NCBI RefSeq assembly: GCF_053078305.1 | Contig: NZ_CP166875.1 | Reading direction: 5' to 3' (one strand) | Length of the DNA: 64,000 bases | From: a plasmid | Shown: piece by piece, positions 1 through 11,415 of the stretch | How positions within the stretch are numbered: position 1 is the stretch's first letter | Layout of the letters: each line of letters starts with the position of its first letter | The notes under the pieces: generated by a model | The model's input: the letters and a program-made list of their open reading frames with translations, nothing else | The model's database searches: none | What the model was told of the DNA's origin: nothing | Position numbers and translations under genes: made by a program

Positions 1-582
1 AGTCACAAATTTTACATTATCTTGATGTGTTTTTTTCTCCTGTTTATTAGTCTCTTTAGGTGACAGGAGTATGGTTAGAATGCTAAATGCACCCATTACA
101 ATAAATATTACATTCCAGTTATAATAATCAAGTATTAATGCTCCGGCCAGAGGTGCTATTAATGGTATTATCGCACTTGTTGATGATATGTCAGAAAGTG
201 CTCTTTTTAGCTTTAGTGGTGGAAAAGACTCTTTAGCAATGGCTTTTGATATTACAGGTCCGGCACCTGCACCTATTGCCTGTAGAATTCTACCCAAAAG
301 AAGCATATTTAAATCATTGGCCATAAAACATACAATACTGCCAATAAGAAATATAATTAAGCATATAGTCATTACGCGTACTTTTCCGAAATAATCACCT
401 ATGGTTCCTGATATCAGTTGACTAAATGCAAATACAATAAGAAATCCACTAATACTTAGTTGAATTAATGAGTAGTCAGCATGAAATGCTTTCTGTAGTT
501 CTGGTAACGCAGGCACAATCATGTCAGTTGATAATGCCGATAATGATGCAGCAAGAACAAGGTAAATATATAGTTTTGTCAT
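1..582 (-). CDS. MFS-type transporter, N-terminal part (gene continues beyond window start)
   Basis: Uninterrupted reverse-strand frame from ATG at 580-582 (AGGGA Shine-Dalgarno upstream) to position 1; translation MTKLYIYLVLAASLSALSTDMIVPALPELQ... is strongly hydrophobic with several predicted TM helices, typical of major-facilitator transporters. Not in ORF track because no stop in window. Confidence 0.5.
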   Translation of the reverse strand, partial: MTKLYIYLVLAASLSALSTDMIVPALPELQKAFHADYSLIQLSISGFLIVFAFSQLISGTIGDYFGKVRVMTICLIIFLIGSIVCFMANDLNMLLLGRILQAIGAGAGPVISKAIAKESFPPLKLKRALSDISSTSAIIPLIAPLAGALILDYYNWNVIFIVMGAFSILTILLSPKETNKQEKKTHQDNVKFVT

Positions 583-979
583 AATTAATCCCTGATAAAA
601 ATATTCTTATTTATCATATTTAAAATGCTTACGCCATCGGTATGTTTTATATTTTGAGATAGCACTACGATAGTGTTTGAGTAGAAACTAATGGGTACTC
701 CCAGATGCATATTCAGGTTGATGGAAGGGGGTAAAAATCCCCGTGCTGAACCTTCCATCCGGAGGGAGGAAACTTATCATTTTAACCTGTTCGTCCGTCG
801 GAATAGTCGAAATCGATCGCGCATCGCTTTTGTGAATAGTTATGCAAGTACCTGAAAACGATTCTGACGCATTTTTTCGGTTTAGCCTGGGGTTTCCTTG
901 TCTTTTTGCGTTTTTGCGTCAGAACGCGTATGAGAGCGTTTCAGCGGTACGTACAATTAAGGGATTATGGTAAATCCCC

Positions 980-1408
980 TTACTGTCTGCCCTCGTATCC
1001 ATCGAGATAAACCGCAGAAATGGTGTCTGCCATTAGTTTCATTTTTTTCGGCGACGGCATATCGCTGTTTGTGTATTTTCTGCCAGCAAAGGTTGTTGTG
1101 CTCCGGAGTGAGTGAAAAAATTTTTCTGAGTGGAATTCTTTTATACGTTGCTGTGCCGTTTCTGCTGATACTCCGGCTGCTTTGTCTTTCACCCCCATAT
1201 CCCGGAACTGCTGAAAGAACGGGAGCATCATACGTATGGTGTCTGCTTTCTGGGTGTAGAAGTTAGGATCAAATCCATCATCTGAAGCATAAACATAATG
1301 CCGGGTATGTCGTTCCAGGCTGGTCTTTGGTGTGCATCCTGTAAGAACGATTGTTGCTGTTATCAGAGGTATCAGAAGCAGCCTGGCAACGGCAGATCTC
1401 ATAAACAT
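980..1408 (-). CDS. putative lipoprotein
   Basis: 142-aa ORF with N-terminal signal peptide and lipobox LTGC (MFMRSAVARLLLIPLITATIVLTGC). Confidence 0.4.
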   Translation of the reverse strand: MFMRSAVARLLLIPLITATIVLTGCTPKTSLERHTRHYVYASDDGFDPNFYTQKADTIRMMLPFFQQFRDMGVKDKAAGVSAETAQQRIKEFHSEKFFHSLRSTTTFAGRKYTNSDMPSPKKMKLMADTISAVYLDGYEGRQ

Positions 1409-1522
1409 CTCCTTGCGTTTTTAATCTTGATACTCAGGGAGTTATATTTCCGAAGAGTATCTCTTATCATACGTCGGTTTACCCCAATGTGATTTGATGG
1501 TCAATGAGTCAGGAATAATCCC

Positions 1523-1801
1523 GTGAAAAAATGTGTGCCAGTCCTGCTTTTTAGTGTTCTTTCTGCTTCGGTTGCCAGTCATGCGGACAGCAATGTTTTT
1601 CAACAAAAGGCCGAGAAGACAAAAAATGGCATTGTTGCGGATGTTAATGCCAGACAGAAAATGTTCAGTAACAGACTGAAGATACAACTTCAGATCGATG
1701 AGTTGAGGGCATCTCTGGCTGGCACCAGAGATGCCCAAAAAAGAGAGGATTTGCGTAAAAAACTGGAGTCTCTGGAGCGGCAAAAGAAATCCTTACGCTG
1801 A
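1523..1801 (+). CDS. small secreted protein, function unknown
   Basis: 92-aa ORF with N-terminal signal peptide (MKKCVPVLLFSVLSASVASHA) followed by a charged, coiled-coil-like C-terminus. Confidence 0.3.
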   Translation: MKKCVPVLLFSVLSASVASHADSNVFQQKAEKTKNGIVADVNARQKMFSNRLKIQLQIDELRASLAGTRDAQKREDLRKKLESLERQKKSLR

Positions 1802-2083
1802 TGGGGGCGTATTTTCCCCGGTTTCTTCCATAACCTTTTTACCGTTCAGATATTTACGGGCGAGGCGAATGCGTCTTGCCTGGTATACCGCCGAGTAAGC
1901 CTGGGTGGGATTCACACCGTTACTGATTTCACTGACCACATGGCGCTGATCAGCCAGTGTCAGCGTGTAAACCTGTTTCTGGATGAGGTCACGGGCTTTG
2001 TCATGCTCATATCCGGCAGCAACAAGGGTGTCGAGAAGTCGTTTGTCTGTTTTGTTCAGTTTATGGCGGGGTGATTTGCTCAC
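1793..2083 (-). CDS. hypothetical protein
   Basis: 96-aa ORF, basic and hydrophilic; no recognisable motif. Confidence 0.25.
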   Translation of the reverse strand: MSKSPRHKLNKTDKRLLDTLVAAGYEHDKARDLIQKQVYTLTLADQRHVVSEISNGVNPTQAYSAVYQARRIRLARKYLNGKKVMEETGENTPPSA

Positions 2084-2214
2084 ATCGTTCTCCGTTTTTC
2101 ATGATCCAACAGTTTTATATCTCATCCTGATTTGCTCCGGTGTTCTGTTTCGACGTTCTCAATGCCTGCCTCCCCATAGTGTGATCCTTATTGCAAAAAT
2201 GAAAATCCATGCTC

Positions 2215-2277
2215 TTGACATGGACAATGGTGAGTAGTAGGTTTTTCTGTACATAAAACCAGTGGTTATATGTACAG
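2215..2277 (+). promoter_or_regulatory. SOS-regulated colicin promoter with tandem LexA boxes
   Basis: Perfect -35 TTGACA at 2215-2220; sequence CTGTACATAAAACCAGTGGTTATATGTACAG (2247-2277) matches the paired overlapping LexA operators (CTGT-N8-ACAG) typical of colicin promoters; AAGAGG Shine-Dalgarno before ATG 2322. Confidence 0.55.
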
Positions 2278-2321
2278 TGTGTTGTTTTTAATTTATTGTT
2301 TTAATTATCAAAGAGGAATTT

Positions 2322-3818
2322 ATGGCTAAAGAACTAAGTGGATATGGCCCAACTGCTGGTGAGTCTATGGGGGGAACAGGGGCGAATCTGAATCAGCAAG
2401 GTGGAAATAATAATAGTAATAGTGGGGTTCACTGGGGTGGTGGTTCAGGCTCTGGTAATGGAGGTGGTGAACATGGAAGTCAGACGGGGTGGGGATGGAG
2501 TAAAACCAATAATCCGGATGTGCCGCCTTATGTTGATGATAATGGGCAGGTGCGCATTACCATTACAAATGGTCTGGTAAAAACGCCTGTATATGGAGTT
2601 CCTGAGGCTGGCGGAAATAGTGATGTTCAGGGGGGCTATATTCCTGAAAATCCTAATGATGAAGTTGCTCGTAAGTGGGATAAAAACAACTTACCGCGAG
2701 AGATTGATGTGAGTATCGATGGTTTTAAATATCGTGTAACGCTTAATGATAATGGTAGAGCTATCGGTATTCTTCGAACAGGTGTCCGTCCTTACGTAGG
2801 GAGTGAAAAAGCTAAGGCGGGTATTATGGAAAAAATCAATCATAAAACACCTGAGGAGATATATGAGGCGTTAGGTTTTAATAAAGATGAATCTCAGCGG
2901 CAGGAAAAAGCAAAACAACAGGCTGAAGATGCGTGGGATCGTTTGCCTCCTAATGTGAGAAAATTTGATGTTGATGTTGAACAGTTCCACTATTTAGTGG
3001 TGCTTGATGATTATGGTAATGTTTTATCTGTAACTAGAACAGCTGTTCGTCCTTATGTAGGGAGTGAAAAAGCTAAGGCTGGTATTATGGATAAAGTCGA
3101 CCATAAGACCCCGGAAGAGATATACGAGGCATTAGGATTTAATAATGAAGAGCCTCAACGACAGAATCAAGCTAAAAAAGCTGCTTATGATGTATTTTAT
3201 TCTTTCAGTATGAACCGTGACCGGATTCAGAGTGATGTGCTAAATAAAGCAGCTGAACTTATATCTGATATGGGTAACAAGATCGGTGATTATCTTGGTG
3301 AATCTTATAAGTCGTTAGCAAGAGAAATTGCTGATGATATCAAAAATTTCCAGGGGAAAACCATCCGTAGCTACGATGATGCAATGGAGTCATTAAATAA
3401 AATTTTGTCTAATCCTAGTTTTAAAGTTAACAGAGCAGACCGTGATGCACTGGTGAACGCCTGGCGAAGTCGTGATGCTCAGGATATAGCAAATAAACTG
3501 GGGAATATCAGTAAGGCTTTCAAAGCTGCCGATGTAATTATGAAGATTGAGAAGGTCAAGGAGAAAAGCATCGAGGGATATGAAACTGGAAACTGGGGGC
3601 CGCTGATGTTGGAGGTTGAGTCTTGGGTTCTCAGTGGTATGGCCGCAAGCGTTGCCATGACATTGCTTAGTGCTATAATTGGATCATTCACACTACCGGC
3701 GTTAGCATTAACTGCAATAAATATTGCAGGTATTATGGGAATTAGTTACCTTGCATCATATATTGATGCAAGTGTGGCTGAAAAAATAAATAATAAATTG
3801 GTTCATTTTACTCATTGA
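2322..3818 (+). CDS. csa: pore-forming colicin, colicin S4-like
   Basis: 498 aa. Gly-rich N-terminal translocation domain (GGTGANLNQQGGNNNSNSGVHWGGGSGSGNGGGEHGS), internally duplicated central segment (TGVRPYVGSEKAKAGIM.K..HKTPEEIYEALGFN occurs twice), C-terminal A-type pore domain with hydrophobic hairpin (GYETGNWGPLMLEVESWVLSGMAASVAMTLLSAIIGSF...). Length and duplicated receptor domain fit colicin S4 as recalled; not verified by search. Confidence 0.85.
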   Translation: MAKELSGYGPTAGESMGGTGANLNQQGGNNNSNSGVHWGGGSGSGNGGGEHGSQTGWGWSKTNNPDVPPYVDDNGQVRITITNGLVKTPVYGVPEAGGNSDVQGGYIPENPNDEVARKWDKNNLPREIDVSIDGFKYRVTLNDNGRAIGILRTGVRPYVGSEKAKAGIMEKINHKTPEEIYEALGFNKDESQRQEKAKQQAEDAWDRLPPNVRKFDVDVEQFHYLVVLDDYGNVLSVTRTAVRPYVGSEKAKAGIMDKVDHKTPEEIYEALGFNNEEPQRQNQAKKAAYDVFYSFSMNRDRIQSDVLNKAAELISDMGNKIGDYLGESYKSLAREIADDIKNFQGKTIRSYDDAMESLNKILSNPSFKVNRADRDALVNAWRSRDAQDIANKLGNISKAFKAADVIMKIEKVKEKSIEGYETGNWGPLMLEVESWVLSGMAASVAMTLLSAIIGSFTLPALALTAINIAGIMGISYLASYIDASVAEKINNKLVHFTH

Positions 3819-3840
3819 TAGAAAAAGAGAGGTGATCATA

Positions 3841-4374
3841 TCACTTCTCTTTAAACGACCTATAGGAACCAATACAAAACCAAAAATACAAATATGAGAA
3901 TATAAAAATAATGGAATGTAAGCTAATGTAAAAAAACGATAGGAGGATTATATTTACAGACATCAGTTTTAGCATTTTTGCAGAACTGGTTAGCTCCGTA
4001 TCAGCAAATAAAAAAGCATATATTAAGATAGCATAAAAAAAAGTGAAAAAAATATTTATTTTCAGTAGTTGCCATGGAGATTTATCATTTTTTAATCTAA
4101 GATTTTTACATGTGTTTAAAAATAAAAGAATGGCAGTGAAAGGAGCTGTTTTTACATACAGACTCAATGTTTTGCTAAATACTGGGGTGTTTTGTGAGTA
4201 TATGGCAGGTAGGTCATTTGCTCTCAATGCTATATAGTTTAATATATTGGATGTTGGATTGTGGATATATATAATGATTATTGAGAACATTGGGATTAGT
4301 GAAATTATAAGGAAGTAAAACATCTTTGTTGCTATTTTATTTCCTTTGTCTGTTTGGTGGTGTTTATTTATCAT
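3841..4374 (-). CDS. csi: colicin immunity protein (A-type, polytopic membrane)
   Basis: 177-aa ORF convergent with and immediately downstream of the colicin gene; four hydrophobic segments; size typical of A-type pore-colicin immunity proteins; AT-rich. Confidence 0.7.
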   Translation of the reverse strand: MINKHHQTDKGNKIATKMFYFLIISLIPMFSIIIIYIHNPTSNILNYIALRANDLPAIYSQNTPVFSKTLSLYVKTAPFTAILLFLNTCKNLRLKNDKSPWQLLKINIFFTFFYAILIYAFLFADTELTSSAKMLKLMSVNIILLSFFYISLHSIIFIFSYLYFWFCIGSYRSFKEK

Positions 4375-4425
4375 CTGTTTACCTGTAAATTTATTATATT
4401 AAAGATTTTGATGAATGGCTATGGT

Positions 4426-4716
4426 TTATTTTCTCTTTAGAGAGTAATATATGAAACTTGGCAATCCTACTGGGATTGCCATTAATAAATAGAACAATGC
4501 AGATAACTTGCATAAGTACCAGGGCTCTTTTTTTAACTTTGTATTTTCTTTGATATATCTAGATATGGTTAATTTAGAGTATGGATATAGCAATACATAT
4601 ATTGACGATATAAAGATAAATAACAAAGGAGTGTTATCAGTGTCGTTAAATATTAAAATAAGAATCCATGGTATAAGTGATTCAGGTAAATTATGTAGGT
4701 AGTATTTTAAATGCAT
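4426..4716 (-). CDS. small polytopic membrane protein, possible second (E1/K-type) colicin immunity protein
   Basis: 96-aa ORF with about three hydrophobic segments, same orientation as the immunity gene, lying between it and the lysis gene; size matches E1/K-type immunity proteins. Confidence 0.35.
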   Translation of the reverse strand: MHLKYYLHNLPESLIPWILILIFNDTDNTPLLFIFISSIYVLLYPYSKLTISRYIKENTKLKKEPWYLCKLSALFYLLMAIPVGLPSFIYYSLKRK

Positions 4717-4745
4717 AAGTATTTTTACTTTTGTCGGAAAGGGAT

Positions 4746-4877
4746 ATGAAAATAATAATTTTTCTAATTAAAATATTATTCTTGTCAGGATGTCAAGCAA
4801 ACTATATTCGTGATGTACAATGAGGAACCGTTGCGTCATCTTCGTCTTCTGAACTGACGGGGATCGCGGTTCAGTAG
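4746..4877 (+). pseudogene. csl: colicin lysis lipoprotein gene interrupted by in-frame TGA
   Basis: ATG 4746 encodes [25 protein letters not shown] (lipobox LSGC), then TGA at 4821-4823, then in the same frame [18 protein letters not shown] and TAG at 4875-4877. The stop sits where colicin lysis proteins have the first Gly of the conserved ...[12 protein letters not shown]... motif. Confidence 0.6.
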
Positions 4878-5076
4878 AAAAGATCAAAGGATCTCTTGAG
4901 ATGGGGTCCCAAGCCGGAAACCTGGATTTTTCCGCTGGATTTTTCCGCGACCAGTAACGGCGTGGGGTGTCACATAAATGACCGATTGAGTGACTGTCAC
5001 TGAAACAACGATTTCTACATCAGATTTCGTCACATAACCCGTCACCTATTGGGGTCAGTTTGGATATAGAGAATTA

Positions 5077-5114
5077 GGGGGCTGGCGCTCAGTGGAACGA
5101 AAACTCACGTTAAG
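5077..5114. repeat. Tn3-family 38-bp terminal inverted repeat
   Basis: GGGGGCTGGCGCTCAGTGGAACGAAAACTCACGTTAAG, near-identical to the Tn3 terminal IR as recalled (about 36/38). Confidence 0.6.
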
Positions 5115-5468
5115 CAATGTTTTCTTCCTCCGATGCCTCTTTTTGCCCTTTAGTCACCAGTTCTGCCAGCGTGAAGGAATATGGCCGAGCATATTGATGT
5201 GTCCGTGGCAAAGTGGTGAGAGGCGTGCGATATCTTCATCATTCACGATTTCCCCCTGTGCCCTGAAATGGTCCAGGGCAGCCTGCATATAAATAGTGTT
5301 CCATAATACGACGGCGTTAGTCACCAGCCCCAGTGCGCCCAGTTGATCTTCTTGACCATCGGTATATCGCTTTCTTATCTCACCTTTCTGACCGTGACAG
5401 ATAGCTCTGGCAACGGCATGGCGACTTTCTCCCCGGTTAAGTTGGGTCAGGATGCGCCAGCGGTAACG
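5110..5468 (-). pseudogene. tnpA: Tn3-family transposase, 3'-terminal fragment (truncated and frameshifted)
   Basis: Reverse-strand translation gives ...RYRWRILTQLNRGESRHAVARAICHGQKGEIRKRYTDGQEDQLGALGLVTNAVVLWNTIYMQAALDH...LSPLCHGHINMLGH, then after a 1-nt frameshift ...YSFTLAELVTKG...EENIA-stop ending inside the IR. Only about 119 codons remain. Confidence 0.55.
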
Positions 5469-5492
5469 GTGATTTCATATTGAAGATAACTG

Positions 5493-5513
5493 TTGTACAA
5501 TTTAATTGTACAA
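5493..5513 (+). promoter_or_regulatory. palindromic operator / promoter upstream of phd-doc
   Basis: Inverted repeat TTGTACAAT..ATTGTACAA containing a TACAAT -10-like hexamer, about 20 bp upstream of the phd start. Confidence 0.4.
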
Positions 5514-5530
5514 CTCAAAGAGGAAGCACT

Positions 5531-5755
5531 ATGTTTACATGTAACTATAGCCATGCTCGCGATAACCTGGCCTCGTTGCTCGAGCTGGCGGTTGATGAAA
5601 ATCAGCCTGTTGAGATTCAGCGCCGTAAAGGTGGCGCGGCTGTACTGGTTGATAAAGACGCTTTTGAACGATACCGTAAAGCGGCTCTTGATGCTGAGTT
5701 TGCTGAGATCATGCAAAGTCATGGGACGGCCTATACGGAGCTTTCTAAGCGATGA
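5531..5755 (+). CDS. phd: Phd/YefM-family antitoxin
   Basis: ATG 5531 with AAAGAGGAAG Shine-Dalgarno; small acidic protein MFTCNYSHARDNLASLLELAVDENQPVEIQRRKGGAAVLV...; stop overlaps the doc start (ATGA at 5752-5755). Confidence 0.75.
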   Translation: MFTCNYSHARDNLASLLELAVDENQPVEIQRRKGGAAVLVDKDAFERYRKAALDAEFAEIMQSHGTAYTELSKR

Positions 5756-6138
5756 AATTCGTTAGTTCACAGGAAATGATTGAGTTTCATGACCGCTTGA
5801 TTTCGCGTGATGGTGGCGTGGCGGGTATGCCAGAACCCGGTCGCGCTGACGCGATCATTCATCGTGTTTTGAACATGTATCATTATGAAGGTGTGACAGA
5901 TATTATGGATCTGGCTGCCGTGTATTTAGTTGCTATTGCTCGTGGTCACATTTTCAACGATGCAAATAAGCGAACAGCCTTGTTTGTTGCACAGGTTTTT
6001 TTAAAACGGAATGGTATACATATTATTAGTTCGCGTATTTCGTTTGATGAAATGCAAATTATCGCTTTGAATGCTGCAACAGGAGAATATAACTGGAAGA
6101 TGGTTTCTGACCATCTTAAAGCCATTATTTTAAATTAG
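5752..6138 (+). CDS. doc: Doc (death-on-curing) toxin, Fic/Doc family
   Basis: 128 aa with the Fic/Doc motif HIFNDANKRTA; translationally coupled to phd. Confidence 0.85.
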   Translation: MKFVSSQEMIEFHDRLISRDGGVAGMPEPGRADAIIHRVLNMYHYEGVTDIMDLAAVYLVAIARGHIFNDANKRTALFVAQVFLKRNGIHIISSRISFDEMQIIALNAATGEYNWKMVSDHLKAIILN

Positions 6139-6709
6139 ATATAGATATCCAATCAGCAGCATTTTACAATCTACTGAGCAATGTAAAAATCATATATCTT
6201 TTTGCTATATAATTTCTGGCGTATGTGCTCAATTCAGACCTGACACTTTTCCGCTTCCTCGCCCACTCGCTCACTACGTTCGGTCGCTGGGGCTGCGGCG
6301 AGCGTTTGTAAGTTTTCTCCAATACTGACGACGTGCTTCCTAGGACAATGAGTCTCTCAGAATCGGTTTCTCGAAGTGACGAGCGATCAGAATGGAGACA
6401 AATAAATTCGGGAAACGAACCTTCACGGTAAGTTTTGTCACATTTATCATCCCTAAACATGAGAATTATCACCAAAACTAACCACCCAACAAACAGCAGC
6501 GCCGGGAGCAGCATTATAAAATCATGTACAGTGTTGCGTAACGACATGATAAGTTCTCAATATGCTCTTTACCAGATTATACCAGTGATACTTTAACGCA
6601 CCATCATTAATGCTAATGTATGCATACATTAGCATTAACATGCTGACAGCAACAAGCGGCGGATTTACGTCTGGATAACGTAAATGATTGCGGTATACAG
6701 GCCAGGCGG

Positions 6710-7558
6710 TCAGATTTTCAGCCGTGCCTGTTCCTGCAGCAGTTCCAGATGATATGTAGCAATAGCGTTTACCACCCCTGCCGTCATCCGTGCGTCGGCG
6801 ATCGCTGAGTGTGCCTGCCCTTCCCAGGTCAGTCCGGCCTGGCTGGCAGCACAGGCCAGTGAAATCGTGCCATAGCGGTTGGTGGCCCCATAATATCCTG
6901 CAGCCAGCTCCATCGCACAATATACCGTCAGTTCTTCCAGCCAGTCAGCCGGATCGCTATGTGCGGCAGCAGTCTGTTTCAGAATGCGGATATCGAACCG
7001 GGCATTAAAGATAATTACTGGTCGGTCCCCGATTGCATGCCGCAGTTGCCGCGCCACATCTGTCCATGATGGTGCGCCGCAGAGTGCCTGCTCACTGATA
7101 CCATGCACGGCGGCGGCCTGCGCCCCGATGGCGACCGTGGGCTTCAGCCTGGTTTCAAACACCACCTGACCGGCCGCATCGGTCAGGCCGATTTCCAGGG
7201 CTTCCGAGGTATTATCCAGTCCTGTCGTTTCAGTATCCAGAAAGAGTGGTGCCAGACTCAGCCAGTCATATGCCTGCCGTGCCATCCGGCCACTGGTGCT
7301 GTTTAGTCGGGATAAAACGGAAAGCCGCTGGCCAGCCAGCTGTTGTTTACTCGTCAGAGGGCGTTTCTCACGCATCGGAACACAATCTGCAATTCGGTAT
7401 ACAGCGAACCTGCCACCATAAGTATTTTTATACCACTTAACCGGCTCAGCACCGGGGGCTGGCTTCATTCTGAATTCATCGCGCAGACGTCCTTTCGAGA
7501 AACACCTGTCTTCGGCAATCGCCTGCGCACGTCTGGTGACCAGCTCATCATTATTCAT
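6710..7558 (-). CDS. DEDDh 3'-5' exonuclease (DnaQ-like) with about 100-aa N-terminal extension
   Basis: 282 aa; Exo I motif FLDTETTGL, Exo II IIFNARFDIRIL, Exo III HSAIADARM; same strand and 45 bp downstream of the RelE/ParE-like toxin gene. Confidence 0.75.
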   Translation of the reverse strand: MNNDELVTRRAQAIAEDRCFSKGRLRDEFRMKPAPGAEPVKWYKNTYGGRFAVYRIADCVPMREKRPLTSKQQLAGQRLSVLSRLNSTSGRMARQAYDWLSLAPLFLDTETTGLDNTSEALEIGLTDAAGQVVFETRLKPTVAIGAQAAAVHGISEQALCGAPSWTDVARQLRHAIGDRPVIIFNARFDIRILKQTAAAHSDPADWLEELTVYCAMELAAGYYGATNRYGTISLACAASQAGLTWEGQAHSAIADARMTAGVVNAIATYHLELLQEQARLKI

Positions 7559-7603
7559 GGTTCTTGCATCTCCGTCAGACGTTTTTATATCCGGACAGCC
7601 CCT

Positions 7604-7885
7604 CTATGGCCACTTCTGTGCAGTATGCAATACTCGCAGGATATACACTTTTCCCCACTGGCTGTCGACCTCATAAACCAGAACAAAATGCGGGTGAATA
7701 ACCAGTTCCCGGGTACCTTCCACACGACCGTTGCGGCCTTTATACGGCTGCCCGGCCAGGCTGCTGGCTGAATAACCAATCCGTTCGTCCAGTTCAATGG
7801 CAGCCATCAGGTTCTGCTCCGCAATGTACTCACGAATGCGCTTCCTGTCCTGGCTGGCCAGCATGGTCCAGAATATCTCCATCAT
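7604..7885 (-). CDS. RelE/ParE-family toxin
   Basis: 93 aa; C-terminal ...HFVLVYEVDSQWGKVYILRVLHTAQ typical of the RelE/ParE fold; start overlaps the upstream antitoxin stop by 4 nt. Confidence 0.75.
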   Translation of the reverse strand: MMEIFWTMLASQDRKRIREYIAEQNLMAAIELDERIGYSASSLAGQPYKGRNGRVEGTRELVIHPHFVLVYEVDSQWGKVYILRVLHTAQKWP

Positions 7886-8151
7886 TTACCGGCAACCTTC
7901 CTGCTCATTTCATCCCGCCATGCTGCAGCAGAGGATTCGACCATGTCATGGGGAAGCACATCGCCGTGCTCGAGTTGCTGACGTCCTGCCGCAACCTGGT
8001 CACGGAACCAGGTATTATGCTGCCGTTCAACGGTCTGGCGCATAAAATCCCGGATTAACTGGGAGCCATTACGGTCCATGCTTTTTGCAGCGGCCATAAA
8101 AGCATCCTTCAGTTCAGCGTCGATTCTTAAACTCATATTAACCTGTGCCAT
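7882..8151 (-). CDS. RelB/ParD-family antitoxin (ribbon-helix-helix)
   Basis: 89 aa; N-terminal RHH signature MSLRIDAELKDAFMAAAKSMDRNGSQLIRDFM; first gene of the operon. Confidence 0.7.
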   Translation of the reverse strand: MAQVNMSLRIDAELKDAFMAAAKSMDRNGSQLIRDFMRQTVERQHNTWFRDQVAAGRQQLEHGDVLPHDMVESSAAAWRDEMSRKVAGK

Positions 8152-8874
8152 TTATCACCTCGTCATTACTACGTATATACACAGTATATAACGATTCAGA
8201 TATCGTCACCAGGATATGCCGCGCCAGCGGCATGGAAGGCGGCGCTCTGTTGTTTCATATGATACCGGAGTAAAACCGCCGAAGCCCGGCGTAAGCCGGT
8301 ACTGATTGATAGATTTCACCTTACCCACCCCCATCCCTGCCAGACCATACCCACTTTCAGCCATGAGAGAGCTTCTGTGCGCGGTCGGAGTGGTCCCGAC
8401 GAGGGTTTACCCGAAGTCGGGGCGTATCTCCGCGTTAGCGGGCCGTCAGGGCCGCTTACGAGCGTGTATTCAACACTTCCAGCGAGAAGACTGACAGCGA
8501 TGATGCTATTTAGTTACAACATTCATAATTAAAAGCGATGTTGTTCCCGCCCTTCGGGCGGGGGCGGCCTCGCTTTTCAGTTATGAGAGGTGAGCACGGT
8601 GCTGCGTTTGTGTGGTGTTTTTATTCCTGATGTCTTTTTGCTGTGGTTTCAGAACGGTGAGGTTCGGGGCCCGCGCGTTAGCGTGGGAGGTGCATATTTG
8701 CTTGTCCACAGGACAGGCACTGAATAGGTTTTCTTTTCAAATGGAAGTAATTAAGTAGTTTAAAGGAAATACAGTACTGGGGTTTAAAAGAAACATTGCA
8801 CCCTGTAACGCCTGCGGCTGGCGCTTTATAGCATTAACGGTTGTAATCTTACGGAGAAGTCCCTTGCAGTTAAA

Positions 8875-8883
8875 TGTGGATAA
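8875..8883. promoter_or_regulatory. DnaA box in putative oriR downstream of repA
   Basis: TGTGGATAA (complement of TTATCCACA) about 180 bp downstream of the repA stop, where RepA1-type replicons place their origin. Confidence 0.35.
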
Positions 8884-9058
8884 ACAGAATTCCCCGTCTG
8901 TGAGACGTGTTTTGCGTGAAAAACAGGGGGAGCAAGGCGAGCCGGAAGGCAGATGATGAGGCTGTTTTTTGTGTGCTGTGCTGCTTTTTTGTGCGTCGCC
9001 GGGCTTCAGACGTGCGGAAGCCTCCGGCGCAGGCCGGATTATTCAGATGAGGTCAAAC

Positions 9059-9931
9059 TCAGGGTGAGGCTGTGGCCAGCCGTGTGTAGTTGTTGTTCCG
9101 CGACATTATCATGCGTTCCTTCACGCGACGGTCGATTTCGCGCTTCACGGCCTCCAGGCTTCCCCGGAAACGCCCTTCCGCGATTTCACGTGTCAGCTGC
9201 CGTTTCACCAGGGTGACAATGTCCTGACGGGTCCTGCCTGCATCGCGGCGCGCACGGGCACGTTTCATGCCGTGGGACTTAAGCTCTGCCTGATAACTGC
9301 GGAAACGCTCGCGCACAAAACGCCAGGCTCTCGCTATCAGTTCATCCATACCCAGCGCATCCAGCCCCTGCTTTTTGCGCAGCTTGTTTTCCCATTCCAC
9401 GCGGCTGCGGCGTGCGGAAGCCACTGCCTCTTCTGAGATATCAAGTGAGTCAAACAGTGCCGGCGTGAACGTGATGTCGGTCGGGATGTTACAGCCAATT
9501 GTCGGGTCGTATTCCGTCTGGTAGGTTATCAGCCCCAGCTCAGACAGGAACTTCAGGGCACGGGTGGCACGGGTGATGGAGAGTTTCCCGGCCTCAGACT
9601 CCGTCGCCAGTCCGCACTCAATGGCCAGCGTGGTGATGGAGCACTGGACGCGGTTGGCCAGCGGATCGTAGTGGAAACACAGCCCCTGCAGCAGCGCATC
9701 AATCGCCCGGCGGCGCAGCACCGGCGGCATACGCCGGCGCAGGCCGCGCGAACGGGCATACGCCACATGCGCGGCAAAATCAAAACGGGAGGTGAAGCCC
9801 ACCGCCTTTTCCATCAGTTTTTCGCAGAACTTCAGCGTCCCGGCATCTTCACGGGGTGTGAAGACCGGATTCGGGTTCTTTACCTGACGGTATGTGCTTT
9901 CAGTAAATGAGGTCTGGTTCAGGGCCGCCAC
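9059..9931 (-). CDS. repA: RepA1-type replication initiator (IncFII / I-complex family)
   Basis: 290 aa; ...[99 protein letters not shown]... closely matches IncFII RepA1 as recalled; start codon uncertain (GTG in ORF track). Confidence 0.85.
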
Positions 9932-10130
9932 AAGCTGTCGCTTATGGCGGAAACAGAATGCCGTGCGTTAATGCACTGCGAAGGGTTGAATCTCTGGTAC
10001 GGTTTCATATATACTTATCCCGTATTCTGTGAGGCCCCCATTATCTTTCTCTGATTCCGCCAAGTTTCGTGGAAAGATGATGGGGGTTTTCCTTTATGGC
10101 CTTCTGAAACTTTTTTCAGCCTTCCGGCCC
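9932..10130 (-). promoter_or_regulatory. repA leader / antisense-RNA control region (inferred)
   Basis: Region upstream of repA on the coding strand; contains 5'-TTGGCG-3' on the repA mRNA strand (window 10057-10062), the loop hexanucleotide used in antisense-RNA control of I-complex/IncFII replicons. No copB/repA2 ORF upstream. Confidence 0.35.
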
Positions 10131-10633
10131 CGGCAAACTGCCGTCGTTTCTGCCATACATCCTGAATGCCTTATGGCGCATTCTGCCGTTTTCTGGCTTT
10201 CCGGACCGCGAGGATCCCAAAAGCCACTGAATAACGATCCGCAATATACCCCTTTTCCACCGCTTTGAAAAGCCGACACGATTTCTCTGATTTACCAGGC
10301 CTCTCATTAACCACCTAAAAAACGTCGTTTTTTTGAACTATGTCAAAAAAATAGACAATTCCACAAACGATCTTTTATGCTGTGTTTTTCATCATTTTTA
10401 GTAGAAGAGATCGCCTAAAATTTTTAAACGATCTAATCCTCCAGACACCGCACACAAATCAGCATAATATGCTGCTTTATCAAATATAACGATCTATTTA
10501 ACTGCTTATCTTCACTCTTGCCACAGATACATCCTTATGTAATATATTTGCCAGCCATTAATCCTGTTTGCAGGAGTTGTCGGTTTTCGCCCGCCTCGAA
10601 ACCGTCCACAAGGCTTACAAGAGTGCGTAAATC

Positions 10634-11275
10634 ATGTGCCTGTCAGAACTGCAGGCCGGGCTGAACGAGGGTCAGCCGCTGTTTCCGACACATGCTTTAT
10701 GTATTCGCCGTTCACAACAACATCGAAGCCCCTCTGCGGGGATCGATTTTCGCGGAGCGTTCCGGATTTTGAATATCAGTGAATTACATCAACGCAACTG
10801 GTATCTGGCTCAGTACATCCCTGCCGGCAAAAACCGCGAACATCTCTTTTCCTGGCTTTCCGAACAACACGTCCTTCCCTGGACACCCCTGATACTGAAA
10901 AAGGTCCGCCGCACGGATAAAGTCTGTGGTTACCGTCGACATATACACGCCGTGTTTCCCGGTTACTTTTTCCTGAAAGCAGACCCCGAACGCCACAGCT
11001 TCACTCACCTTCGCCGTCACAGTGCCTTTCTGGACTTCGTGAAAATGGCCGGTGAAATCAAAACCGTCAGGGAGGATATCGTTCAGTCTTTGATGAAAGT
11101 GTACCCGGATCCTGCGCTCAATCCGGCAGCCAGGGAGGAGCTGGATGCTGCCTCCACCCTCTGGCTGACAAAAGCGCGTTACCAGTACCTCCTCCGGCTT
11201 GATGCACAGCCTCTGCCGGAGTCGAGGATCGCCCTGCTCCTGCACCTGGTATCTGATGACGGAGCGTTGACATGA
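10634..11275 (+). CDS. NusG/RfaH-like (NGN domain) protein, possible transcription antiterminator
   Basis: Segment NWYLAQY...LPWTPLILKKVRRTDKVCGYRRHIHAVFPGYFFLKADPE...FLDFVKMAG parallels the RfaH/NusG NGN domain (FPNYLFVEFDPE); no clear KOW domain; start uncertain. Confidence 0.45.
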   Translation: MCLSELQAGLNEGQPLFPTHALCIRRSQQHRSPSAGIDFRGAFRILNISELHQRNWYLAQYIPAGKNREHLFSWLSEQHVLPWTPLILKKVRRTDKVCGYRRHIHAVFPGYFFLKADPERHSFTHLRRHSAFLDFVKMAGEIKTVREDIVQSLMKVYPDPALNPAAREELDAASTLWLTKARYQYLLRLDAQPLPESRIALLLHLVSDDGALT

Positions 11276-11415
11276 AAATTGCTGTCTTAATTTGACGACT
11301 TTTCCCGGCCTTTATGGCCGGGATTTTTTTCCCTTCTGTTTCCACAATGCCCGGCACCGGTGACACCTGAGGGTGTACGGAGAGCGGCTGTCGGGCATTT
11401 TTTCAGGACGCCTTT

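Follow-up and report, generated by a model that had tools for sequence, protein, structure and literature searches.

The transporter gene that is cut by the start of the window (the whole stretch of 64,000 nucleotides of plasmid DNA analysed here) is the first gene of a self-contained and translationally coupled two-gene operon, MFS–pyr. The second gene encodes Pyr, an enzyme that most likely produces the pyrazine signals known from Klebsiella since 2024, and we put at about 60% the probability that the transporter is a proton-coupled exporter of the carboxylated Pyr monomers or of the pyrazines; both the direction of transport and the substrate are predictions from sequence. The position of the gene beside a colicin S4-type locus appears to be an accident of plasmid mosaicism.

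The transporter and its partner synthase

The 5' half of the transporter gene (codons 1–194 of 372) fills positions 1–582 of the window. It lies on the minus strand, a detail absent from the preliminary description, and is therefore transcribed away from the colicin gene. The reading frame starts with an ATG at 580–582, stays open from 582 to 1 and exits through the window start, leaving 178 codons of the transporter and the whole pyr gene beyond it; we read this outer context from the annotated IncF twin plasmids L001 and L002. The window itself is 100% identical to plasmid CP027674.1 of E. coli 2014C-3003, the one record with full identity, and 99.4–99.8% identical to the annotated IncF plasmids. 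The fragment alone matched Pfam MFS_1 with E = 1.2e-37 (130.1 bits; gathering cut-off 33.4) and Sugar_tr with E = 4e-13, and is 100% identical to residues 1–194 of WP_000164329.1, a 372-residue protein annotated as an MFS transporter in the RefSeq twins. The preliminary description was thus right to call a partial major-facilitator gene at 1–582. The full-length protein scored 141.9 bits against MFS_1 (3e-41), which places it in the superfamily.

Hydropathy analysis gave a layout of six plus six helices, counted as ten clear peaks and two weaker helices; residues 175–196 form a charged central loop. A motif A-like sequence, GTIGDYFGK, occupies residues 59–67 (motif A of the DHA1 family is GxLaDrxGrk, between helices 2 and 3), so that the two six-helix halves, the cytoplasmic loop and the motif of a 12-helix DHA1 transporter were all found. 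From this layout and the position of the loop, the window contains exactly the N-terminal six-helix half plus the central loop. Among NCBIfam models the best match was Bcr/CflA (TIGR00710), aligned end to end with 173.1 bits (1e-50); the curated cut-off is 200.9, making the protein a relative of Bcr/CflA and not a curated member. TcaB, PunC, EmrD, MdtL and CmlA/FloR followed, all under their curated cut-offs, and the closest solved structure was EmrD (6e-17). Homologues with 52–83% identity were confined to Enterobacterales; under 52% came one metagenomic protein at 45% and then generic DHA1 pumps at about 30%. The transporter appears to form a distinct small clade of the drug:H+ antiporter (DHA1, Bcr/CflA-like) type. 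It shares the 12-helix MFS_1 fold and motif A with Bcr, EmrD, MdtL and CmlA/FloR, but generic DHA1 pumps stand alone as housekeeping genes and are at most about 30% identical to it, whereas this gene is tied genetically to a biosynthetic enzyme.

That enzyme is encoded by pyr, a gene of 407 codons (WP_033802100.1, annotated as a class I/II-fold PLP-dependent enzyme) whose start overlaps the transporter stop by 4 bp (ATGA). A terminator hairpin with a 10-bp stem and a T-run stands 9 nt 3' of the pyr stop, and the two genes form an island of 31–39% GC (35% overall) between flanks of 45–60% GC. The overlap, the hairpin and the low-GC island together argue for a compact bicistronic unit. Pyr matched NF005697 with 452 bits, against a cut-off of 342, and fell far short of the cut-offs for BioF, Kbl, serine palmitoyltransferase, ALA synthase and CqsA. 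Its closest solved structure was Alb29, an alpha-oxoamine synthase (AOS) of secondary metabolism. All nine homologues compared keep H144, D218–D219, H221, K254 (in SLSKAFG) and R380 unchanged; by the AOS literature and the alignment to Alb29, these would be catalytic residues, with K254 the PLP-binding lysine. The closest relatives, with 76% identity, are encoded on chromosomes of the Klebsiella oxytoca complex. Literature searches with the protein accessions and with PRK07505 found no publication.

The CP027674.1 copy of pyr carries an additional A in a run of seven at about codon 356 (L026 ~630, corresponding to L001 ~11516). The insertion would cut Pyr to 358 residues, with loss of the conserved Arg380, and may be either a homopolymer assembly error or a real mutation; the other copies of pyr are intact. 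If the frameshift is real, this plasmid is another case of a transporter retained next to a dead pyr. Beyond pyr (L001 6996–10676; L002 8879–12559) lies a cluster of 55–60% GC with genes for a CdaR-like sugar-diacid regulator, an SLC13 permease and a glycerate kinase, which is unlike the cassette in composition and is missing from the small plasmids described below.

Upstream of the transporter, a Shine–Dalgarno-like AGGGA read from the sequence (589–593, minus strand) stands 6 nt from the ATG and is kept as AGGGA or AGGGG in four close copies of the module. Directly upstream of this ribosome-binding site is a palindrome, TGATAAA-N10-TTTATCA (593–616), that shows 0–2 changes in the copies on IncF, 6.7-kb, 5.6-kb and 3.8-kb plasmids and is not conserved in two variants of the transporter with 83% and 73% identity; it is possibly an operator. 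A Fur box at the same position was considered and found unconvincing, with about 11 of 19 matches to the Fur consensus by eye. Alignment to small plasmids that carry the transporter showed that the non-coding leader at 583–929 (minus strand), a putative promoter region, moves with the gene. A sigma-70 consensus scan of the minus strand over 583–1000 returned no site. An Rfam scan of window positions 1–6000 at E ≤ 0.1 returned nothing, neither an RNAI nor a riboswitch or other leader RNA. Three inverted repeats lie in this conserved upstream region: the palindrome at 593–616, a repeat at 719–759 (GATGGAAGG...CCTTCCATC) and a long repeat at 851–950, around TTCTGACGC...GCGTCAGAA, within a stretch common to small colicin plasmids. 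Possible roles are those of an operator, a site of the plasmid backbone or a recombination site.

The pyr pathway in Klebsiella and in E. coli

The pyr pathway is already known, and MFS–pyr is an ordinary member of this recently described system. Hamchand et al. (2024, Nat Commun 15:8902; PMC11480411) reported a pyr operon in Klebsiella oxytoca, in which Pyr makes pyrazine autoinducers. Pyr joins L-phenylalanine or L-tyrosine to succinyl-CoA to form the gamma-keto-delta-amino acids PALA and TALA; pyrazines 5–9 then arise by dimerisation of these with one another or with aminoacetone (PMC11480411). As autoinducers, the pyrazines up-regulate iron acquisition; the reported effects, at 10 uM, were of signalling and not killing (PMC11480411). 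A Pyr homologue from STEC yielded the same products in BL21 (PMC11480411). We assumed that this homologue is WP_033802100.1, an identity supported by the origin of the cassette plasmids, mostly from STEC strains, and by the lack of any other E. coli homologue among the best 120 listed matches. The identification of Pyr superseded our working idea of an uncharacterised aminoketone or antimetabolite cassette. The transporter of the operon gets a single mention in PMC11480411, and products were measured in whole cultures that had been dried, so that the measurements carry no information on export.

The published knock-out construct allowed us to match the loci. One primer arm is 100% identical over 30 nt to positions 7971–8000 of the Klebsiella loci L006–L008; it lies inside the 3' end of the transporter gene and stops right before the synthase ATG at 8001, which identifies the published pyr as the Klebsiella homologue compared here. 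The gene order in these loci (transporter, synthase, aromatic amino-acid permease of TIGR00837) agrees with the description in PMC11480411. The second arm maps with 84% identity to 10185–10229 of the same loci, within the downstream permease gene. Judged on these related strains and not on ATCC 8724, the published pyr deletion may also take about three quarters of the permease.

The window transporter and that of the Klebsiella operon share 62% identity over 363 residues and are orthologous by this measure, and in both systems the transporter gene lies immediately upstream of a co-oriented Pyr gene and overlaps it. The E. coli version differs in several respects. It is plasmid-borne and has 35% GC, against 52% for the Klebsiella operon, and transporter copies without pyr were seen for the E. 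coli version, unlike the Klebsiella operon. It also has no counterpart of the downstream permease or of the EamA, TetR and heme-oxygenase-like genes that lie upstream in Klebsiella. When the permeases of Klebsiella and Winslowiella were used as tblastn queries, no match appeared downstream of the plasmid pyr or in the whole window. In Klebsiella and Raoultella (L006–L008 and L023, ~4000–6900) the gene for the EamA-family exporter precedes the pyr operon and, on the opposite strand, the heme-oxygenase-like gene (BesC-like, PF14518) adjoins that of the TetR regulator. These genes could provide extra tailoring and regulation steps; the part of the PMC11480411 text that was available does not mention them.

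Pairing of the transporter with the synthase extends well beyond these two genera. On the chromosomes of Klebsiella, Raoultella, Winslowiella, Brenneria and Nocardia the genes stand side by side in the same orientation, and likewise in Salmonella; in Klebsiella, Raoultella, Salmonella and Winslowiella, the nearest homologues outside E. coli for which context was read, the transporter gene lies directly upstream of the Pyr homologue. Identity to the E. coli pair (transporter/AOS) declines for both proteins together, from 62/76% in Klebsiella and 58/74% in Salmonella to 35/62% in Brenneria and 32/54% in Nocardia. The TIGR00837 permease accompanies the pair in Klebsiella, Raoultella and Winslowiella.

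Synthases with 42–45% identity (Enterobacter, Acinetobacter and Bartonella) belong to another cluster, of four to five genes and with an unrelated MFS protein, and in Photobacterium the synthase is alone. The distant cluster (L012 Enterobacter, L013 Acinetobacter and L015 Bartonella, ~6000–11400) starts with the Pyr-like synthase, followed in Enterobacter by an O-methyltransferase, in Bartonella by a 77-residue open reading frame and in Acinetobacter by nothing. Then come a protein of about 320 residues of unknown kind, the unrelated MFS protein and a protein of about 356 residues, of which the Enterobacter version alone gave a weak AMP-binding match. This cluster probably makes a different, uncharacterised product.

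Plasmid distribution and the colicin neighbourhood

The cassette is rare: 15 of 72,556 PLSDB plasmids carry it, as do 11 of the 5,426 complete E. coli genomes, in every case on a plasmid. A 2.9-kb segment (L001 11067–13992, reaching to about window position 875) is common to CP057426.1, a mobilisable 6.7-kb MOBQ plasmid whose sole cargo is the MFS–pyr pair. In E. coli, the pyr pathway appears from these comparisons to be a mobile, low-GC, two-gene plasmid cassette.

On the other side of the transporter, the window continues with a gene for an Exc2-family lipoprotein (980–1408, minus strand; NF033828, 179.6 bits) and two small open reading frames, annotated as hypothetical in the twins (1523–1801, plus strand; 1793–2083, minus strand). 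The first LexA-box-like site lies at 2247–2262, shortly before the colicin ATG at 2322 and 1.66 kb from the transporter start codon; none is present in window positions 1–2246, and hence no SOS box precedes the transporter. The preliminary description, which had put the transporter about 1.7 kb from the colicin promoter with a lipoprotein gene and two small open reading frames between them, is accurate on both counts. The colicin is an S4-type protein of 498 residues with a PF22512 translocation domain and a pore-forming domain; it contains an internal duplication of about 70 residues. Further along are its immunity gene (3841–4374, minus strand), an extra orphan immunity gene of colicin K type (4426–4716, minus strand), a lysis gene truncated to 30 of about 49 residues (4731–4823) and a fragment of a Tn3-family transposase (5154–5324, minus strand).

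In a junction zone at 810–975, the cassette overlaps at its right end with the left end of a segment derived from small colicin plasmids. Window positions 1–929, 1–941 and 1–975 align with 93–94% identity to the small MFS plasmids L003, L005 and L004, respectively, and for small colicin plasmids the match to the window is confined to 810 (or 934) through about 2331. The stretch at 810–975 is backbone common to both families of small plasmids, with 76% identity between them (L004 3518–3683 against L021 4561–4727), and is the probable recombination site that, on these alignments, would have brought the transporter next to the colicin. To survey linkage we took the PLSDB plasmids that match window positions 1–2300 (n = 609). 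Transporter and colicin were linked in eight, all of one IncF lineage; the other 601 had no single match over at least 80% of that region, and among the matches listed for them all begin at 810–936 and run rightwards, without the transporter. Hundreds of colicin plasmids have the exc2–colicin segment and no MFS gene. In the IncF plasmid CP061837.1 the cassette adjoins DUF2235 and DUF2931 genes instead of the colicin locus, and in NZ_CP075653.1 an IS2 element lies between the transporter and exc2.

These observations bear on the idea that the transporter belongs to a colicin, another bacteriocin or a microcin system, as an export or immunity function for the adjacent toxin. Proximity to the colicin promoter, in the eight linked plasmids, speaks for it. 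Against it, an immunity gene and a truncated lysis gene are already part of the colicin locus, transcription is divergent with no LexA-like box upstream of the transporter, the 35% GC module ends at about 810–975, linkage is rare and replaced by other contexts in CP061837.1 and NZ_CP075653.1, and small plasmids and chromosomes harbour the cassette with no colicin at all. Neither conserved linkage nor co-regulation with the colicin operon was found, and the adjacency is best explained by plasmid mosaicism, given the mosaic junction, the rare linkage, the missing SOS box and the separate immunity gene. We regard a colicin role as effectively refuted and give it hardly any probability. Microcin-type genes are absent from the cassette. 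A partial parallel is MccC of the microcin C7 operon, likewise a plasmid-borne MFS exporter in E. coli that is encoded together with the genes for a small secreted molecule; that molecule, microcin C, is a ribosomal peptide-nucleotide, and the window transporter, unlike MccC, has no accompanying microcin biosynthesis genes.

The preliminary description had also allowed that the transporter might serve a small-molecule or peptide system past the window start. The small-molecule half of that suggestion stands, with the ATGA-coupled Pyr synthase; the link to a peptide, colicin or microcin falls, as the cassette is found without colicin and there is no SOS box. On inspection, the context upstream of the window was indeed unrelated to bacteriocins, and it was not an ordinary drug-efflux locus either.

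Orphan transporters and the role of the transporter

Several plasmids carry the transporter without a functional partner. Five small plasmids, of 3.8 kb and 5.6 kb, have the same 1-kb internal deletion of pyr and an intact transporter gene. On the 3.8-kb plasmid (NZ_CP081188.1, L004), found in E. coli and Salmonella hosts, this is the only annotated cargo gene; the 5.6-kb plasmid is NZ_CP075856.1 (L005). The 83%-identical variant of the transporter has just a 45-residue pyr remnant downstream and the 73%-identical variant has none, so that at least three independent lineages lack pyr and keep a full-length transporter. The dN/dS ratio was 0.13–0.22 in all transporter pairs, and 0.22 between the two pyr-deleted copies. 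These values point to purifying selection that maintains the orphan genes without pyr. An intact transporter where pyr is deleted implies that the protein must be useful without the producer enzyme in the same cell. We found no published mention of such persistence after pyr loss, which is the new element here. The 73%-identical orphan (L016–L018, from metagenome and E. coli contigs) adjoins a plasmid-borne sialic-acid cluster (NanR, NanA, NanT, NanE and NanK) and IS66. Neu5Ac metabolism has been linked to autoinducer production in Klebsiella (PMC11480411); the location of the orphan may be coincidence.

For the complete cassette we favour export. Pyr would condense L-phenylalanine or L-tyrosine with succinyl-CoA to PALA and TALA, these would spontaneously dimerise and oxidise to carboxylated pyrazine autoinducers, and the transporter would exchange the charged products or monomers for protons, releasing the signal and keeping its cytoplasmic level low. 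The family profile, the operon structure, the conserved pairing and the self-sufficiency of the cassette all agree with such a role. Pyr alone sufficed in BL21 (PMC11480411), and the transporter is therefore not required for synthesis. The score under the Bcr/CflA cut-off and the intact transporters left after pyr deletion also weigh against export. The alaremycin cluster of Streptomyces offers an analogy: AlmA joins serine and succinyl-CoA into an analogue of 5-aminolevulinate, and product yield in E. coli rose when the MFS protein AlmE was co-expressed, an effect that the authors read as export (PMC12006855, PMC9356726). As in MFS–pyr, an MFS gene is clustered with an alpha-oxoamine synthase, although the likeness is one of function and not of membership; alaremycin has a four-gene pathway with tailoring enzymes, an antibiotic product and another organism.

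PALA and TALA are themselves analogues of 5-aminolevulinate. The transporter might accordingly be a stand-alone resistance or 'immunity' pump, parallel to bacteriocin immunity genes, that protects against PALA and TALA or against related compounds from neighbours. The three or more pyr-less lineages with full-length transporters, its standing as sole annotated cargo on the 3.8-kb plasmid and the low dN/dS, also between the pyr-deleted copies, fit this well, and AlmA and AlmE set a precedent, with an ALA-analogue antibiotic from an alpha-oxoamine synthase paired with an MFS exporter. We nevertheless think it unlikely: there are no reports that PALA, TALA or the pyrazines are toxic, the effects at 10 uM being those of signals, and BL21 over-producing Pyr without the transporter grew and accumulated products (PMC11480411). 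Slightly less probable in our estimate is uptake, of the precursor, the monomers or the pyrazine signal, by which orphan copies would let non-producers sense or scavenge. Maintenance of the orphans is compatible with it, and the NCBIfam match list includes importers, PunC and the rhizoferrin importer FslD, which count against export. Yet the chromosomal operons already have a dedicated aromatic amino-acid permease for the precursor, and most of the best family matches, like the closest structure EmrD, are proton antiport exporters. A generic multidrug or antibiotic efflux pump hitch-hiking beside pyr seems improbable to us. Drug pumps (Bcr/CflA, EmrD, MdtL and CmlA/FloR) are the nearest curated families, and the gene is sole cargo on small plasmids of farm and clinical isolates; however, it scores under every curated cut-off, identity falls from 52% within Enterobacterales to about 30% for generic DHA1 pumps (barring the one metagenomic protein at 45%), adjacency to the AOS and parallel divergence are kept from Enterobacterales to Nocardia, and the AMRFinder calls of L002, the one twin whose PLSDB table lists them, do not include it.

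A more speculative proposal, which we rate no higher than uptake, is that MFS–pyr might be a small-molecule allelopathy module, made of a producer gene and an 'immunity' pump, with the transporter itself a selectable resistance determinant. Were this so, PALA and TALA might inhibit porphobilinogen synthase, as alaremycin does, and the tiny plasmids with the transporter only would be resistance-only 'cheaters'. More remote is the thought that cassettes of this kind underlie some of the 'historical microcins', plasmid-borne and amino-acid-derived, that were never cloned. Reviews describe microcins 15m and 93m, which are derived from amino acids, as plasmid-borne, methionine-reversible inhibitors; we found no evidence connecting these two to the cassette.

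With the colicin link unsupported, the finding has no bearing on bacteriocin biology. Export of Pyr products, the reading we prefer, instead places the transporter in a signalling pathway described only in 2024, to which the present comparison adds a plasmid context. The natural plasmids, one with the pair and two with the transporter only, offer a handle on the role of the transporter in export, self-protection or uptake, and the same set bears on what the pyrazines or their monomers may cost or bring to their hosts beyond signalling.
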